The notes under the pieces: model-generated
Told to the model about the DNA's origin: nothing
Seen by the model: the letters and a program-made list of their open reading frames with translations, nothing else
The model's database searches: none
From: an uncultured Planctomycetaceae bacterium
GTDB lineage: Bacteria > Planctomycetota > Planctomycetia > Planctomycetales > Planctomycetaceae
Direction: 5' to 3'
DNA length: 64,000 nt
NCBI GenBank assembly: GCA_963813715.1
Contig: CAWFAK010000017.1
Span: 1,088,001 to 1,152,000, forward strand
Made by a program: the position numbers and the translations under genes
Shown here: positions 11,942 through 25,361 of the stretch, piece by piece
Layout: each line of letters starts with the position of its first letter
Position numbering within the stretch: the first letter of the stretch is position 1

Positions 11942-12144
11942 ATCTTTCTTCTATCTCGGCAAGTGGTCGCTGTCAGCCGACGCTCCGTGCTTTCGACAGA
12001 CTGACGTCCGACGCAGGCCCGCATTGCACTCGGGACGCGAAGCCTGGGCGCACTGCCAGCTGGCAGCCCCGCTGGTGATCGGCTAGATTTCAAAACGTAA
12101 GCCGGCCTGCGATCGGCCGTTCAACTGGCACTCTGGAATTGCGG

Positions 12145-13516
12145 ATGGTTGTCTCGCCTGGAACGTTGGACCGATTCTCGCGCCGACATCTCTTGCAGGT
12201 CGGCGGCCTTGGACTGCTCGGCGTGACCCTGCCGCGACTGCTCGAGTCGCAGGCACGGGCCGCCGCGTCTGGAATCGTCCCCAAGGCCGATGCCTGCATC
12301 CTGCTCTTCCTCAACGGCGGGCCCAGCCATCTCGACATGTGGGACATGAAGCCCGGAGCGCCGGACGGCATCCGCGGGGAATTCAGTCCCATCGCCACCT
12401 CGCTGCCGGATTACCAGGTCAGCGAGCACATGCCGCGGCTGGCGCGGCACATGCATCGGGCCACGATCGTGCGTTCGATGCATCACGGCGTGAACAACTC
12501 CCACGCGGCCGCGGTTTATGCTTCGCTCACCGGGCACGACCGGGGCGAAATTGGCGGCGGAACGCAGCCGACCGACTACCCGTCGACGGGATCGCTCGTC
12601 AGCCTGTTGCGACCACCCGCGGTCCCCGTGCTCTCGCACGTCACGCTGCCGTATATGACGAAGGAAGGCGCCGGCGGCCCCCCGCAGCCGGGATTCTTTG
12701 GCGGATTCTTGGGACACGCCCGCGATCCCCTCTTCGTGCTCCGCGATCCGAACGCCAAGGATTTCGCGGTACCGGAACTGACACTGCAAGCCGACATCAG
12801 CGCACAGCGCCTCGAGGTCCGTCGGGCCTTGTACGAACAGCTACAGAGTAACGTGTCGGCCCAGTTCGGCGGCAACTCGGCGGCTTCGATGAGCGCGTTT
12901 CAGGCGAGAGCCATCGACCTCTTGACCGCGCCGGCCACTCAGCGCGCGTTTCAGAATCTCACGCGAACCGGACAAAGTTCGCGACGATTACGGACGCAAT
13001 ATCTATGGCCAGAGCGTGCTCCTGGCCCGGCGGCTGATCGAAGCGGGTACGCGCGTGGTCACGATCTCCTGGGCGCCGGACGCCAACGCCACCTGGGACA
13101 CGCACGGTAGCAACTTTGTCAGTCTCAAGAACGTCCTCTTGCCGCAGCTCGACGCGGCCTGTTCACGCCTCGTCAGCGATCTTGACCAGCGCGGGCTGCT
13201 GGAGCGGACGATCGTCGCGGTCTTTGGCGATTTCGGGCGTTCCCCCAAGATCAACGGTAGCAATGCGGGCCGCGATCATTGGAACTATTGCTACAGCCTG
13301 ATGATGATTGGCGGCGGCTTCCAGAAGGGGCTCGTGTACGGCACGAGCGACGGCATCGGGGCCTTTCCCGCCAGCAACGCCCTGATGCCAGGCGACGTTG
13401 TGTCGACGATGTACCACCTCTTGGGCATCCCGCACGACGGCCAGGTCCGCGACGCCTTCGGCCGCCCTTATCGCATCGTCCCCAGCGGCGACGTGATCAA
13501 CGACCTCATCGCTTGA
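12145..13516 (+). CDS. DUF1501 family protein with Tat signal (frameshift near 12955)
   Basis: SRRHLLQVG Tat motif, LFLNGGPSHLDMWDMKP, LLARRLIEAG, WDTH, GDFGRSPKIN, GRDHW. Confidence 0.9.
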
Positions 13517-16370: not shown

Positions 16371-17098
16371 TTAAGCCTTCGCCAAGGCACGGTGCGTCCC
16401 GTGCTCTCTCGTCACGCGCATGCTCAGAAAGATCCACGGTCCGGGCCCAAGGATCGAAAGACGAAAATACCGCGTGCTTTGCAGTTTCAGGCCGAGGGCC
16501 GGGAAGTATTCGGAGTAAGTGTAGATTTTGTGCAAAGCGCACAGCCCCAACATCCAATGGGAAACGTTTGCAACGGTGTAATAGAGCCAATGCCGGAACC
16601 GCAGCACGATGTTCCCGCGCGGCGAGGCAAAGTCTGCGATGACGAGATCTCCCCCGGGACGGACCAGCGAAACGAGCCGAGTCAGCATTCGTAACATCGC
16701 GGGTCGCGAGAAGATGTTCAGGAAGAAGTTCGATACCACGACATCAAACGGTTCGTCCGCCTCGAATTCCATGATGTCGGCGCAGACGAATTCCCCCGGC
16801 AAATCGGCCGCCTCGAACCGCTGACGGACGATTTCGATCATGCTGGGTGACAAGTCGACGCAGGTCACCTCGACACCACGACGCACGGCCTCGAGCGCTT
16901 CCTCGCCCGGTCCGACGCCGACGTAGAGGACCCGCTGCCCGGCGGCATATCCTCGATCTGGGACAGCCGGGTGGCCAGATTCTGCCCGCCGGTACACAAG
17001 GCGGTCAGCCGTTCGTAGATCGGGGAAATCGATTCGTAACTGCGGGCAATTTGTTCGCCCGACGAATGTGGCTTCGCCTGGACCTGAGCGGCCATCAC
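16371..17098 (-). CDS. Class I SAM-dependent methyltransferase (frameshift near 16945)
   Basis: VLYVGVGPG motif I, VDLSPSM, FDVVVSNFFLN, LVRPGGDLVIADF; N-terminus in ORF 16865..17098. Confidence 0.85.
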
Positions 17099-17160: not shown

Positions 17161-18393
17161 TCAGCACATGCCCACATCGACCGCAGCAAGGTCCGCGACA
17201 GGGGGGAGCGTCGCGGTGGGGTCGTCAGTGTTCGGTTGCACTTCATCGCGAGGATAAAGCAGTGGACGGGGAGGAAAGATCGACGAGAATCCGGCCTTGA
17301 GAACCGCCCGCATCGTCCAGCGGCCACCCTTGACGAAAATCGACAACGGCACCTGGTAGCAGCCGAGCTTGTCGTGCTTGAGCGCGTCGGTTGTCTGACC
17401 GATGCAAATCTCTTGCGCACCGTGCCGAAATGCGGTGTCGATCGATTGATACAAGAGGTTGAAATAGACCTCCGCTTCGGCGTTCACCTCGTAGTCGACT
17501 CCCAGCACCATTCCATGGAACGTCGTCTCGGAGACAAGCGAGAGGGAGAAGCCGACGATTTCCTCGCCGCGATAGATCAACGTGAAGACCGTGTTGTCGG
17601 GCATCCGTCGGGCCAACTCCCGAGGAAACTCGAGAGGCAATTGCTCGAATTGAACGTCGGAACGGTCAGCGACCGCCTTGTACAATTTGTGAACCGCGTC
17701 CGTGTAAACATCCGCAACTCCGTCGCGACCGTACAGCTCGACAACCCGCAACCCGTTTTCCGGGAGCCTTTTTTGCGACCGGCGGATCGGCCGGCGTTTC
17801 TTCGACGGAAATCGGGACAGGTAGTCGGCGAAGTCGCGCGATCCGGGCTCGACGCGGTTCATCGGGAAACTATCGGCACGGCGGTAACCGAGCGACTCCA
17901 GTGGCTCCAGGTCCGAGCAGCCTGCTTCATCGATTTCTTTGAAGAGAATCAGGCGGGCCCACTCGCGCCGCGCGAATTGACACGCCACCCGATCGAGGCA
18001 TCGCAGCACGGCCGCGCGATCGGCCTCGGGCGTGAAGCGAACGTGGCTTTGTCCGGCCGAAACAGGCAGGCCGCACAAGATCAACTTGCTGCGGAACAGC
18101 CACGGCGCCACACGTTCCAGGCCAGCCACGACTTTCTGCACGCGGCCCTTCGCCAAGGAGGCGCCGCCGATGCTGTAGGAACTTAGACAGGCAATTGCCA
18201 TGGGCCGACGTCGGCCATCTCGCACGATGACGTGCCGAAAGCGGCACGCCTTGGCAAACCCGATCTCGACGGCTTCGATGAAGCGCGGATCCATGAACGG
18301 ATCGCTCGCCGCGTCCCGGAGGCTGTTCCATTCGCCCGGGTCCACGCGGCCGATCGAATCGTAGACCTCAAATTGATAGTCAGCGCTGTCCAT
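17161..18393 (-). CDS. FemAB-like / BioF2-like GNAT-fold transferase (paralog 1)
   Basis: DSIGRVDPGEWN, LILFKE, DFADYLSRFPSKKRRPIRR, GVDYE, YFNLLY, IGQTTDALK; co-linear with 39182..40363. Confidence 0.8.
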   Translation of the reverse strand: MDSADYQFEVYDSIGRVDPGEWNSLRDAASDPFMDPRFIEAVEIGFAKACRFRHVIVRDGRRRPMAIACLSSYSIGGASLAKGRVQKVVAGLERVAPWLFRSKLILCGLPVSAGQSHVRFTPEADRAAVLRCLDRVACQFARREWARLILFKEIDEAGCSDLEPLESLGYRRADSFPMNRVEPGSRDFADYLSRFPSKKRRPIRRSQKRLPENGLRVVELYGRDGVADVYTDAVHKLYKAVADRSDVQFEQLPLEFPRELARRMPDNTVFTLIYRGEEIVGFSLSLVSETTFHGMVLGVDYEVNAEAEVYFNLLYQSIDTAFRHGAQEICIGQTTDALKHDKLGCYQVPLSIFVKGGRWTMRAVLKAGFSSIFPPRPLLYPRDEVQPNTDDPTATLPPVADLAAVDVGMC

Positions 18394-18471: not shown

Positions 18472-19896
18472 TCAATGAACTTCTGATCCGGCGACGACGT
18501 GAGACGGATCTCGCCTCTTGCGAACGCCGTCCGTCGGACTCTGCGAGATCTCCGCCGGCTGAGGCCCGGTCAGAGGCGACCGCGGGTGAGCGGCAAGATG
18601 TGCGCGCTCTCGACGCTTGAAATGCTTCTGGATGAGACTCAAACACGTTCGCTTCAAGCTGAAGTCCAGCATGCCGCTCATGCGGACCAACGCCAACCCA
18701 GTGAGCAAGGTCGTGCCGGGAAGGGCACAGATGTAACGCCCCTCATAACGTGGACGGAAACGACTCTTGAAATGGTAAATGCCTGCGAAGTCGAACAGGA
18801 AGTTCAGATACTTCAGACCGATGGTGAACGCGTGACGCGTCATGGCGCTATCGCCCTTGAGCGGTTGTTCACAACCAACCGCGGGAACGAGGCAAAGTGA
18901 AACCGCCTCGATCCCTTCGGACTTCATCCGCGTCATCGCCACATGAAAGAGATGGGGAACGACACCGCGGACGGCATCGCTGCGGTGACGATACATCTCG
19001 AACGACCAGTGCATACCGTTTCGGCTCGGAAGGGCGATCAGAAACCCCTCGATGCGTTTGGGAGAATCGCCGGAGTAGGCAACGAACAGGCGTCGACGAC
19101 CCCAGCCATTCTCATCGAGCTGACCTTCGAGCAGCCGGATTGCGCCGGCGTGAGATTTGGTCGCCAGATGCTCGTCGGAAACCGCGCGTAAGTCTTTGAT
19201 GAGCGACGTCCACGCGGCATCATCCATGTCTTCGCGACGATGTTCGATGACGCTGATGCCCGCCCGACGGCAGTAGTTGGTTTGGCGACGCACCCACTCG
19301 AACTGCTTGCCGGACCAGGTGCAGGTTTGCAGGTCGACGTACGGTTCTTCACCCCATTTCGTCACTTGAAAGCCATGCTCGCGAAACAGAGGGGCGTCTT
19401 CCTCGGTTACGTTGAAACAAGTGACGAGCAGCCGGTGCGAACGGGCGAAGGCGACGAACTCGCGCAACAACTGCGGCTTATCTTCATCGCGTGCGAGAAG
19501 TCCCCCGATGACCTTCACATACCGGCCCAGCCGCCGATACGACACGAGGCCGCGGCGATCTGTCGACCAGAATCGTTTCCATCCGCTTTCGGTCGCGAAG
19601 TACGAATCGTAGACGGCTCCGCAAGTGAAAGCCTGATGCTCGACTCGCAGCCATCGATTCGATTCCAGGCTCTCTTGCGGCCGAGTCAGAATCGTCTGAT
19701 CGCAATCGGATGCGGGCTCGTCTTCCGTCGCGACCCGTTCGCTCCTAATCGTTCCATTCGTTGGCTCGAGCAACGTGTCGAGTTGGGGATCGGAATCCGA
19801 CAGCGCGTTGCCGCTCGTGCGGGAGCGCCAAACCTGGACAGCCCAGGAGCGTTGACCGTTCAGATAGTTGTGGGTTGAAGTCACCGTGTCCGTCAT
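18472..19896 (-). CDS. Stand-alone DUF2156 (MprF/LPG synthase C-terminal-like) aminoacyl-tRNA-dependent transferase
   Basis: TKWGEEPYVDL, WSGKQFEWVRRQTN, EMYRHRSDAVRGV, FAGIYHFKSRFRPRYE; no N-terminal multi-TM flippase domain. Confidence 0.82.
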   Translation of the reverse strand: MTDTVTSTHNYLNGQRSWAVQVWRSRTSGNALSDSDPQLDTLLEPTNGTIRSERVATEDEPASDCDQTILTRPQESLESNRWLRVEHQAFTCGAVYDSYFATESGWKRFWSTDRRGLVSYRRLGRYVKVIGGLLARDEDKPQLLREFVAFARSHRLLVTCFNVTEEDAPLFREHGFQVTKWGEEPYVDLQTCTWSGKQFEWVRRQTNYCRRAGISVIEHRREDMDDAAWTSLIKDLRAVSDEHLATKSHAGAIRLLEGQLDENGWGRRRLFVAYSGDSPKRIEGFLIALPSRNGMHWSFEMYRHRSDAVRGVVPHLFHVAMTRMKSEGIEAVSLCLVPAVGCEQPLKGDSAMTRHAFTIGLKYLNFLFDFAGIYHFKSRFRPRYEGRYICALPGTTLLTGLALVRMSGMLDFSLKRTCLSLIQKHFKRRERAHLAAHPRSPLTGPQPAEISQSPTDGVRKRRDPSHVVAGSEVH

Positions 19897-20035
19897 CCCC
19901 TCTCCAACTGACGTCGGATGGCGGCAGGCTGTAATCCGCCTGCCCCCGTCCGCTTCGCGGATTCAATCGGCCCATCAATCCGTGAAAGGGGCGCGACGGT
20001 GAGAACAAAACGAGCTGGAATGAACCTGGCCAGCT
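19880..20035 (-). promoter_or_regulatory. Candidate structured 5' leader hiding the RBS, copy 1 (before DUF2156 gene)
   Basis: On the mRNA, CCCCUUUC pairs with the SD GAGAGGGG directly before AUG 19896, enclosing two hairpins. Confidence 0.55.
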
Positions 20036-20343
20036 TCCATTGAACGGAGCGAAGAGCTCCAAGAAGAGCGATTCGCGAGGAGCCGTTGTCCCCCCGCGCC
20101 CCGCTTTGGAAACGCCTCACGGGGCGATCGCCCCGGAAAGGCAAAAATGCGGCAAACTCGCATCAGACCGAATTGCGATTGGACATTTCTCCAGCGCGTG
20201 TAGGTCCCGAAATAGACCTTCTGCGCCTCGCCGCGTTTACGAGAGGACTCTGGTCCGCTCGAGGGGGCCTGCAGGAGCCCGACGCGGCTTGAGAAACCTT
20301 CGCCGTCGAAGCGATCGTGGCTGGAAGTCACCGTGTCGGTCAT
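19975..20343 (-). CDS. Possible upstream ORF or paralog remnant (122 aa)
   Basis: Strong SD AGAAGGGG; starts MTDTVTSSH like the DUF2156 gene; the remainder is not recognisably protein-like. Confidence 0.3.
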   Translation of the reverse strand: MTDTVTSSHDRFDGEGFSSRVGLLQAPSSGPESSRKRGEAQKVYFGTYTRWRNVQSQFGLMRVCRIFAFPGRSPREAFPKRGAGGQRLLANRSSWSSSLRSMEAGQVHSSSFCSHRRAPFTD

Positions 20344-20485
20344 CCCCTTCTCGAACCGATGTCGGTGGCTGCAAGATGACTCCCATCTGCTGCCGTCCGA
20401 TTAGCCGCGGATTTGATCGGCCCATCAATCCGTAGAAGGGGCGCGACGGTGCGAACTCAAAGGTTGGAAAGACTTTTGCCAGCGT
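20328..20485 (-). promoter_or_regulatory. Candidate structured 5' leader hiding the RBS, copy 2
   Basis: CCCCUUCU pairs perfectly with the SD AGAAGGGG before AUG 20343; same two internal hairpins with changed sequence. Confidence 0.55.
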
Positions 20486-20840
20486 CGTTTGGGTGCAGTG
20501 CGGATCGCCGGGAAAAGCGACTCGACAGGAGCAGTCCGTGTCGGTGGAGCCTCCGATGCCCAGCGACGGCTCTACGTCCGAAAAGGCAACTCATTCAACC
20601 GACTTTATTCAGAACCTGTAATCGAAGTCAAGGACGCAGTTTACGTGATCAGAAAATCCTAACATCAGGTCTCGAATCGACCTTGATGCTCCGGCATGTT
20701 GCGAAAAAGCATTTCGCGATGGGGCCGAGTCGCAACGTCTCCGCGCGAACCTTCCTCGATCGGCCACCTCGATTAGCCGAAACTGGCTTTGGTTCCGGCT
20801 GCGTGCTAACGTAGCGTCCCTCGACCGACCGGAGTTTTCG

Positions 20841-21236
20841 ATGTCCGAGACAAGCCAAAATGGTCCCGACTTCTCCAAGGCGGACCTCATTCCCGTCATC
20901 GCGCAGGACGACGCCTCGGGCGACGTTCTGATGCTGGCGTACATGAACGAGACGGCCTGGAAGGAAACGCTCGCCACGGGACGAGTCTGCTATTACAGCC
21001 GCAGCCGGCAAAAGCTCTGGCGCAAGGGCGAAGAAAGCGGCAACGTCCAGGAGGTCAAAAGCATCTTCTACGACTGCGATGCCGACACCATCCTGATCCG
21101 CGTCAATCAGATCGGCGGTGCTGCATGTCACGAAGGTTACAAGAGCTGCTTCTTCCGCAAACTTGACCCGCAGACGGGTCGCGTCGAGGTGATCGGCAGT
21201 CGTCTGTTTGATCCGAAGGCCGTCTACAAGAAGTAA
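20841..21236 (+). CDS. hisI: Phosphoribosyl-AMP cyclohydrolase
   Basis: [44 protein letters not shown]. Confidence 0.96.
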
Positions 21237-24065: not shown

Positions 24066-25361
24066 ATGATCACTCGCCCGAATCGACGCGATTTCCTGCA
24101 CGTGGGTTTTGCCGGAGGCATCGGACTCACGCTGGCAGACCTCTTCCGCCTGCAAGCCATAGGCGGGGACGAGCAATACAACACGTCCGAAGGCAAAGCC
24201 AAGTCCGTCATCTTCATCTACTTGCCCGGCGGTGCGCCGCATCAGGAGACCTTCGATCCCAAGCCGTTCGCACCGGTCGAATACCGCGGCCCGATGAGCT
24301 CGATCGCGACGAATGTCGACGGCATTGTGCTCAATGAGTGTTTGGCGCAGACGGCCAAGGTCTGCGACAAGCTCGCGCTCTGTCGCTCGATGACGCACGG
24401 CGAAGCAGCCCACGAGCGGGGCACGCACAACATGTTCACCGGCTACAAGCCGAGCCCGGCCCTGGCGTTTCCGAGCATGGGCAGCGTCGTGACGCACGAA
24501 TTCCCGCCGCGCAACAATCTGCCGCAGTACGTCTGCATACCGAGCATGCCGAACGAGTTTGCGGGGACAGGCTACCTGAGCTCTTCATTCGCGCCGTTCA
24601 GCCTCGGCGGCGATCCGGCCGACAATGGTTTCACGGTGCAGGATCTCAAGCTGCCCGGCAGCGTGAGCGATGGCCGCTTCAGCCGTCGCCGCCGCATCCT
24701 CGATGCGGTGAACGATTACTTCGAACACAAGGAAAAGGCCGACTCGCTCAAGGCGGTCGACACGTTCTATCAGCGAGCCTACTCGATGGTCAGTTCGCAG
24801 AAGGCCCGCGAGGCATTCAACATCAAGGCTGAGCCGGCCAAGCTTCGCGATGAGTACGGCCGCAACACGGCTGGCGCCCGCATGCTATTGGCTCGGCGGT
24901 TGGTCGAGGCGGGCGTTCGCTTCGTGACGATGACGTATGGCAGCTGGGACCTGCACGACAACGTGCAACCCAACATCAAGAATCAATTGCCGGCCTTCGA
25001 CCAGGGGTTTGCCGCCCTGATTCGTGATCTCGAGCGTCGCGGGCTGCTCGCCAGCACGCTGGTGTGCATCGCCTCGGAATTCGGCCGCACGCCCAAGATC
25101 AACGGCACGGCCGGCCGCGACCATTGGCCGAAGGTCTTCACCGTGGTGATGGCCGGCGGCGGCATCAAGGGCGGCTTGTCGTACGGGTCCTCTAACGCCA
25201 CTGCCAGCGAGCCCGAGGATAAGCCGCTGTCCGTGGAGGATTGGGCAGCTACGATTTACCAGTGCCTAGGAATCAATCCCGAGAAGAAACTGTTGGCCCC
25301 GGGCGCCCGGCCAATCGCGATTGTGAAAGACGGAGAGGTCCGCAAGGAATTGCTGGCGTGA
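24066..25361 (+). CDS. DUF1501 family protein with Tat signal
   Basis: NRRDFLHVG, IYLPGGAPHQETFDPKP, LLARRLVEAGVRFV, WDLH, SEFGRTPKIN, GRDHW. Confidence 0.92.
   Translation: MITRPNRRDFLHVGFAGGIGLTLADLFRLQAIGGDEQYNTSEGKAKSVIFIYLPGGAPHQETFDPKPFAPVEYRGPMSSIATNVDGIVLNECLAQTAKVCDKLALCRSMTHGEAAHERGTHNMFTGYKPSPALAFPSMGSVVTHEFPPRNNLPQYVCIPSMPNEFAGTGYLSSSFAPFSLGGDPADNGFTVQDLKLPGSVSDGRFSRRRRILDAVNDYFEHKEKADSLKAVDTFYQRAYSMVSSQKAREAFNIKAEPAKLRDEYGRNTAGARMLLARRLVEAGVRFVTMTYGSWDLHDNVQPNIKNQLPAFDQGFAALIRDLERRGLLASTLVCIASEFGRTPKINGTAGRDHWPKVFTVVMAGGGIKGGLSYGSSNATASEPEDKPLSVEDWAATIYQCLGINPEKKLLAPGARPIAIVKDGEVRKELLA

Follow-up and report, generated by a model that had tools for sequence, protein, structure and literature searches.

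The SMK/SAM-III and TPP riboswitches regulate translation through a three-way junction in the 5' leader, in which the SD is sequestered. In ROSE and fourU elements and in the long prfA leader, the SD is held in a stem with G-U pairs and loops, and the weak, U-rich anti-SD of the ROSE and fourU thermometers melts in the physiological range. In coupling of the SecM, MifM and CutF type, an upstream frame ends beside a helix that hides the ribosome-binding site of the next gene. Tandem riboswitches for glycine or TPP place two similar structured units in one 5' region. It has also been reported that the leader of the MS2 maturation gene forms a cloverleaf, which a complementary sequence further upstream closes over the SD, and that translation occurs briefly before closure (PMC4615214).

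In this study, we analysed a 64-kb stretch of planctomycete DNA (the window) that carries, on the minus strand, two copies of an element of about 120 nt (120-123 nt), at 20451-20329 and 20001-19882. Each copy is predicted to fold as a three-way junction, and its long basal stem would hide both the SD and the start codon of a standalone DUF2156 gene. Together with related genomes and metagenome contigs, the sample held 19 copies, 10 of them distinct; an upstream complement closing a multibranch fold over the SD is predicted in all 10, with substitutions that keep the pairs. The 5' UTR of the levivirus (MS2) maturation gene is likewise a leader of about 120 nt with such a complement and fold, and with low translation (PMC4615214), which we infer for the element as well. 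In MS2 there are three inner arms, and experiments have shown that a conserved metastable hairpin delays closure (PMC4615214). The element, by contrast, has two inner arms and a stem that extends over the start codon as well, and a conserved metastable hairpin was not found in it. The likeness is one of functional analogy only, and there was no Rfam match to any such family.

The other systems differ further from the element. Unlike SMK/SAM-III and TPP, it has variable unpaired bases and no conserved alternative state, and it gave no Rfam match at the gathering score or below E 4.6. Unlike ROSE, fourU and prfA, which it also did not match in Rfam, it has a C-rich rather than U-rich anti-SD and a far more stable fold. 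As in the SecM, MifM and CutF type, an upstream frame ends by the helix, but without a conserved peptide or codon signal. In contrast to glycine and TPP tandems, each unit has its own start codon and gene remnant, and the spacer of 201-330 nt is coding debris. The original prediction had recognised no known riboswitch consensus, and the covariance models of Rfam 15 agreed, with 0 matches at the gathering threshold in the window. At up to E 10, the region 19600-20800 gave two weak matches (E 4.6 and 6.8) that fall in the spacer or flank, outside the element. No cis-regulatory RNA of a DUF2156 gene was found described in the literature searched, although motif tables in survey supplements may hold the element. 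The only planctomycete motif found there is Rhodopirellula-1, named in one survey (PMC2864571), in whose main text DUF2156 does not appear. The element is a real, selected and apparently uncatalogued SD-sequestering leader of narrow range.

The two copies share 77% identity over 172 nt (E 2e-28) and 74% over 221 nt, so that the likeness between them reaches about 220 nt. Both copies, and every motif that had been reported in them, were found in place, as follows (all on the minus strand).

20329-20451: structured leader, upstream copy; its 123 nt carry 0 changes across four close strains
20451-20423: its 5' arm, with the anti-SD at 20441-20434
20422-20403 and 20399-20363: its hairpins P2 and P3, respectively
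20361-20329: its 3' arm, with the SD at 20351-20341, AUG at 20343 and GUG at 20331
19882-20001: structured leader, downstream copy; its 120 nt carry 1 change across four close strains
20001-19973: its 5' arm, with the anti-SD at 19991-19984
19952-19915: its hairpin P3
19913-19882: its 3' arm, with the SD at 19904-19894, AUG at 19896 and GUG at 19884
20463-20483: small hairpin 5' of the upstream copy (third stem), with a counterpart at 20014-20034; its register varies among relatives (by eye)

No third copy was found in the 7.5-Mb genome by BLAST, pattern searches or nhmmer. An assembly artefact was ruled out by the same tandem in G002, L099 and L100 and by contigs of runs X1 and X2 that span the spacer without a gap. 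A coding sequence was ruled out as well, as indels disrupt every frame in at least one copy. A mobile repeat (MITE/REP) was rejected on the grounds that the genome holds only two copies, plasmids hold none, and the lone viral pattern match has no model score. A terminator-like site at 20164-20146 was taken as chance (5 such sites found, 5.8 expected).

In the consensus fold, the basal stem consists of three helices with about 23 consensus pairs, and the two hairpins P2 and P3 stand on top. The 5' arm, whose anti-SD is a G-C rich C-run, pairs first with the region of the start codon, then with the SD and last with CAUCRGUU. The proposed anti-SD/SD helix and its CACCGU/ACGGUG extension were both present in the predicted fold of both copies. 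The proposed second hairpin corresponds to P3, which was kept in 10/10 distinct copies and holds all 3 double-sided changes. The tight-ended folds of the two copies reached -57.9 and -59.8 kcal/mol, in the top 1.5% and 1.0% of 1500 GC-matched genome windows, and z was -2.6 and -2.5 when the copies were folded with their flanks.

Other parts of the proposed structure did not hold, or held in part. The hairpin described as nearly invariant was absent from the minimum-energy fold. It is a weaker alternative, worth -3 to -8 kcal/mol, that loses to a competing helix in 10/10 copies: its 5' strand pairs with CAUCRGUU just 5' of the SD with a probability of 0.93-1.0, compared to at most 0.05 for the hairpin itself. 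This hairpin was pairable in 85% of cells with 0 double-sided changes, and its stability was no better than that of shuffles (P 0.08-0.91). As an open state it was rejected: it is predicted to leave the SD paired in 9/10 copies, and the hairpin's own pairing is kept no better than the null. The compensatory changes claimed for the anti-SD are both real between the two copies. Across the sample, however, the better of the two positions pairs in 6/10 copies (C-G four times, U-A and G-C, by eye) and breaks in 4/10. Similarly, the third stem is present in the window, but not in a constant register among relatives.

We examined whether the element is conserved beyond its surroundings. Among six genomes, its mean pairwise identity was 0.85, compared to 0.55 at fourfold-degenerate gene sites, 0.54 upstream of the promoter and 0.70 in the rest of the leader. 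Four close strains have one deletion in common; their two elements together had 1 change in 243 nt, whereas third codon positions had 35 in 304. The interleaved spacer of these strains had 10 changes in 327 nt (P 0.03 against the elements), and the upstream copy alone gave P 0.07 against the spacer, a count dominated by one strain pair. On a hand-set tree, the 78 paired columns account for 35 substitutions and the 44 unpaired columns for 65, with 16 pair-breaking substitutions against 22.5 +/- 1.4 expected. Cells were paired in 95.6% compared to 27-53% with slid partners, G-U cells numbered 41 against 4 A-C cells, and z was better on the minus than on the plus strand in 9/10 copies; as the structure was derived from 9 of the 10 copies, these pairing, substitution, G-U and strand tests are partly circular. 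In the held-out copy, L102, 3/4 private changes preserve pairing. The original prediction had called its covariation evidence weak, and it stayed so with more copies: double changes occur in 3/39 pairs, all in P3 and 0 in the helices that hide the ribosome-binding site, and 21/500 shuffles reach the score. These results support an RNA structure of the minus strand under selection, in which substitutions mostly keep the pairs and double-sided covariation is not significant.

The same data bear on whether the RNA has any function at all. A recently duplicated GC-rich UTR could be conserved by shared descent or recombination, and the narrow distribution, the lack of significant covariation, a low-change block between G000 and G002 that extends over the spacer too, and the decaying upstream copy of G010 (z -0.9, four broken pairs) would all fit such a history. 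The excess of identity over neutral sites across species, and changes that avoid paired columns and keep pairs, argue against it, and we consider it very improbable.

The start codon of the DUF2156 gene had been taken to be the AUG that directly follows the SD. This codon is ACG in 4/10 copies, which include those of all three single-copy genomes, where the genes are intact; all four downstream-type copies have AUG. An in-frame GUG four codons downstream is invariant. The frame from GUG was open for 90-95 codons up to the first conserved core motif in 6/6 genomes, and its codon positions (0.69/0.70/0.57) have a coding signature. GUG is therefore the likelier start, with AUG a less likely candidate in downstream-type copies. 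The SD of the two copies forms duplexes of -10.7 and -10.1 kcal/mol with the genome's own 16S tail. The best duplex overlaps the AUG itself and sits 11 nt 5' of GUG. Across the genome, an SD-like word precedes 476 of 2228 long ORFs, where the spacing peaks at 5-8 nt and is 11 nt in 28.

Both the SD and GUG are predicted to be mostly paired in 9/10 copies, and the tenth has GUG partly free. Compared with 150 other starts, the cost of opening the ribosome footprint ranked at percentiles of 0.26-0.95, which is unexceptional for this GC-rich genome; the copy that leads into the intact gene stands at 0.62 and the upstream copy at 0.94, which speaks against strong repression. This overlap with ordinary genes would be expected if the structure had been selected for mRNA stability or processing and the SD pairing were a by-product. 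Conservation of P2 and P3 far from the start codon, and of the upstream copy among close strains although its gene is gone, point the same way. On the other hand, the 5' arm is complementary precisely to the SD and the start codon, and the consensus helix ends at GUG, so selection for stability or processing alone seems to us distinctly unlikely.

We next consider how such a stem could open. At 25 C, the closed fold is 12-27 kcal/mol lower than any open fold. No open conformation recurred among the 10 copies in the predictions; the open folds differ between copies, and pairing of the anti-SD by an anti-anti-SD in the 5' half was dominant at some transcript length in only 5/10. Hairpins of the 5' prefix formed in all copies with different registers (z -0.2 to -1.6; barriers of 1.3-19.5 kcal/mol), and no metastable hairpin was found to recur across copies in the prefix folds. 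In the upstream copy, removal of the first 12 nt of the 5' arm did not lower the opening cost. Opening became cheaper as the temperature rose and still cost 16.6 and 9.5 kcal/mol at 55 C for the two copies. Among unpaired columns, 10/48 were invariant, and four of these can pair with one another (a shallow sample). The absence of a recurrent open fold, the variable unpaired bases and the absence of heat opening in the computed range make a riboswitch and a thermometer unlikely.

A riboswitch was among the readings first put forward; its ligand might be, for example, SAM, an amino acid or tRNA. A three-way junction in a 5' leader with a buried SD and no Rfam match would fit a new element of this kind, and the downstream genes use aminoacyl-tRNA and SAM. 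The energy gap without a conserved alternative fold that frees the SD, and the concentration of substitutions in unpaired columns, which is unlike a ligand pocket, stand against it. So do its restriction to part of one genus and one gene class and the origin of the tandem by deletion. We regard this reading as improbable. An RNA thermometer is far less probable still: the long SD-sequestering stem does contain several G-U pairs and internal loops, and its opening cost drops with temperature, but the C-run of the anti-SD lies in G-C pairs that remain costly to open at 55 C, and the downstream genes include no heat-shock gene.

A closed leader might also be opened in trans. Candidates are a protein, a small RNA, or cleavage of the long stem by RNase III, which would free the SD strand. 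In favour are the length of the basal stem and RNase III, which is encoded in the genome, and the size of the energy gap suggests that outside help is needed. One unpaired A in the stem and two unpaired bases at the junction are invariant. DUF2156 domains bind and use aminoacyl-tRNA according to PMC7334510, so that binding of the leader by its own product is conceivable. No specific factor or cut site was identified in this analysis, and the presence of RNase III, a nearly universal enzyme, says little. Opening in trans seems unlikely, though it deserves a serious hearing.

The features around the element were then mapped as follows.

20602-20631, minus strand: sigma-70-like promoter (TTGACT, 18 nt, TAAAGT); same site in 7/7 element-bearing genomes, 89% identity
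20457-20594, minus strand: possible leaderless upstream ORF of 45 codons, doubtful; it stops 8 nt short of the upstream hairpin's 5' arm
18472-19884, minus strand: standalone DUF2156 gene, type A (PF09924, MprF synthase-like); its N-terminal extension, some 60 aa long, is typical of the leader clade
17161-18393, minus strand: FemAB-like/GNAT gene, second in the operon (PF04339, PF13480)
16371-17098, minus strand: SAM-dependent methyltransferase gene, third in the operon; split over two frames near 16944 in the assembly
20841-21236, plus strand: hisI, first gene of the divergent operon (NF000768); the same neighbour at related loci marks a conserved locus

The promoter search found 1 site against 0.9 expected by chance, and transcription is predicted to start near 20594. 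An ATG lies exactly 7 nt past the -10 hexamer in 7/7 genomes (window 20586-20594, minus strand), as expected of a leaderless start. The frame of the methyltransferase gene is probably broken by an assembly indel, as run X2 has a one-base insertion at 16944. A second assembly frameshift probably accounts for the overlapping ORFs 12139-13110 and 13016-13516 on the plus strand (12139-13516), which jointly match a single unbroken gene at 24066-25361, as well as continuous stretches of G003 and G009. The N-terminal extension of the DUF2156 gene (19612-19884, minus strand) carries a short conserved acidic motif near codon 30, and two relatives of the gene are labelled Planctomycetaceae. Standalone DUF2156 genes (L044-L073) occur in 12/12 genomes of the genus, up to several in each, and form at least three subtypes by eye. 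Parts of the stretch occur in 14 RNA runs; four of 16 listed runs were examined, and all consist of contigs with low depth alike over the genes, the leader and the divergent intergenic region. Since the depth is low over all three, DNA carry-over is possible, and the runs show neither transcription nor a start site nor enrichment.

As an explanation of the locus, we tentatively prefer a clade-specific translational leader that is closed by default and acts as a damper rather than a ligand sensor. The mRNA would begin near 20594, and the 120-nt element would fold into the long stem crowned by two hairpins, its 5' arm paired with the SD and GUG. The finished RNA would then translate the DUF2156 gene poorly. 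Translation would most likely take place in short windows, either while the transcript is still nascent and the long-range stem has yet to close, or when a ribosome from an upstream frame runs into the 5' arm. Weak covariation, unexceptional opening of the footprint, the distance of 11 nt between SD and GUG, and genomes with the same gene and no leader count against this explanation. The regulatory reading of the original prediction keeps a selected structure that buries the DUF2156 ribosome-binding site, 3' of a conserved promoter-like site and outside any Rfam family; its switch is unsupported.

Coupling to an upstream ribosome is a weak candidate for the opening route. In every context read, the stop of an upstream frame falls in the range from about 20 nt 5' of the hairpin to 70 nt within it. 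The stop of the 45-codon ORF has a common position in 6/7 genomes. The evidence is weak because such frames are open by chance in 21-55% of shuffles (40-55% for the 45-codon ORF) and have no codon signal. The 45-codon ORF was not taken as a conserved peptide, since its codon positions gave no signal (31/29/31 of 45).

The two copies had been described as a tandem leader, but a functional design of that kind is not supported. The spacer contains a gene remnant:

19975-20331, minus strand: remnant fusion ORF of 118 codons, in which a type-A start is joined in frame to a type-B end

The front of this ORF (about 20337-20248) is the start of a deleted type-A DUF2156 gene, with 43% identity over 30 aa. 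Its rear (about 20241-20146) corresponds to the last 32 codons of a type-B DUF2156 gene (56% over 32 aa, E 2e-10), and the stop lies 24 nt inside the downstream hairpin. The type-B part shares 71% DNA identity over 102 nt with the type-B end in the metagenome contig L102. In this contig, the last 158 type-B codons, open to the contig edge, stand directly before a downstream-type copy, a type-A gene and FemAB. Spacers of other lineages, 201 nt in G007 and 221 nt in G010, differ in origin; the G010 spacer retains some 40 codons from the start of a type-A gene. In the tree, the downstream copies form one clade and single copies group with the upstream ones (support 100/99). The deletions have three different end points, and 3/7 genomes are single-copy. 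These sequences suggest an ancestor with the order leader-A', B, leader-A'', followed by three losses of A' and B; the full ancestral arrangement was found in no contig. Each copy would have led its own duplicated DUF2156 gene, with the first gene and the intervening paralogue deleted later. Independent samples confirm that the tandem exists; it arose through deletion. A further type-B paralogue elsewhere in the genome (G000:C17:410864-411636, minus strand; L063 and L069) is split over two frames and has no leader copy upstream.

A more elaborate reading would make a two-stage relay of this gene debris. The upstream hairpin would be the sensor, for example of charged tRNA, the DUF2156 protein or a metabolite. 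On its opening, ribosomes would translate the 118-codon fusion, enter the second hairpin by 24 nt, strip off the anti-SD and switch on the intact gene. If true, it would account for the survival of both hairpins, with an open frame from one to the other, in each of three separate deletions, and for the lack of change in the upstream copy among close strains despite its lost gene. We think such a relay rather improbable, and the damped leader remains our tentative preference.

The element was found in 7/12 genomes of one genus of soil planctomycetes, with two copies in G000, G002, G007 and G010 and one copy in G003, G006 and G009. A protein search of a metagenome collection gave seven loci, six with the element, of which only L102 contributes new sequence; with this kind of search, copies before other genes fall outside its reach. 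With the covariance model, true copies score 119-165 bits. Among 150 family genomes, strong matches to the model (R1) occurred only in two genomes of the same genus, and the best other match (23.3 bits, partial) was rejected as antisense within a long ORF. The 150 phylum genomes gave one match of 20.8 bits, and neither sample yielded a credible copy from beyond the genus. Nor did the five genomes of the genus that BLAST had not matched, where the best score was 20.9 bits, yield a credible copy; three of them are only 65-74% complete. No copy was found upstream of 15 other DUF2156 loci and L105 or on plasmids, and viral contigs gave 1 pattern match with no covariance-model score. At least four genus genomes (G004, G005, G008 and G011) have the same gene type with a shorter N-terminus and no leader. 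The N-terminal extension is found in leader-bearing genomes, so that leader and extension appear together in one sub-clade.

The reach of the finding is small, as the element does not extend beyond part of one genus, for which only unannotated assemblies of genomes and metagenomes were available here. Genomes with one copy, with two copies, or with the same gene and no leader provide natural controls. If confirmed, the leader would be a first handle on the regulation of standalone DUF2156 operons that use aminoacyl-tRNA.
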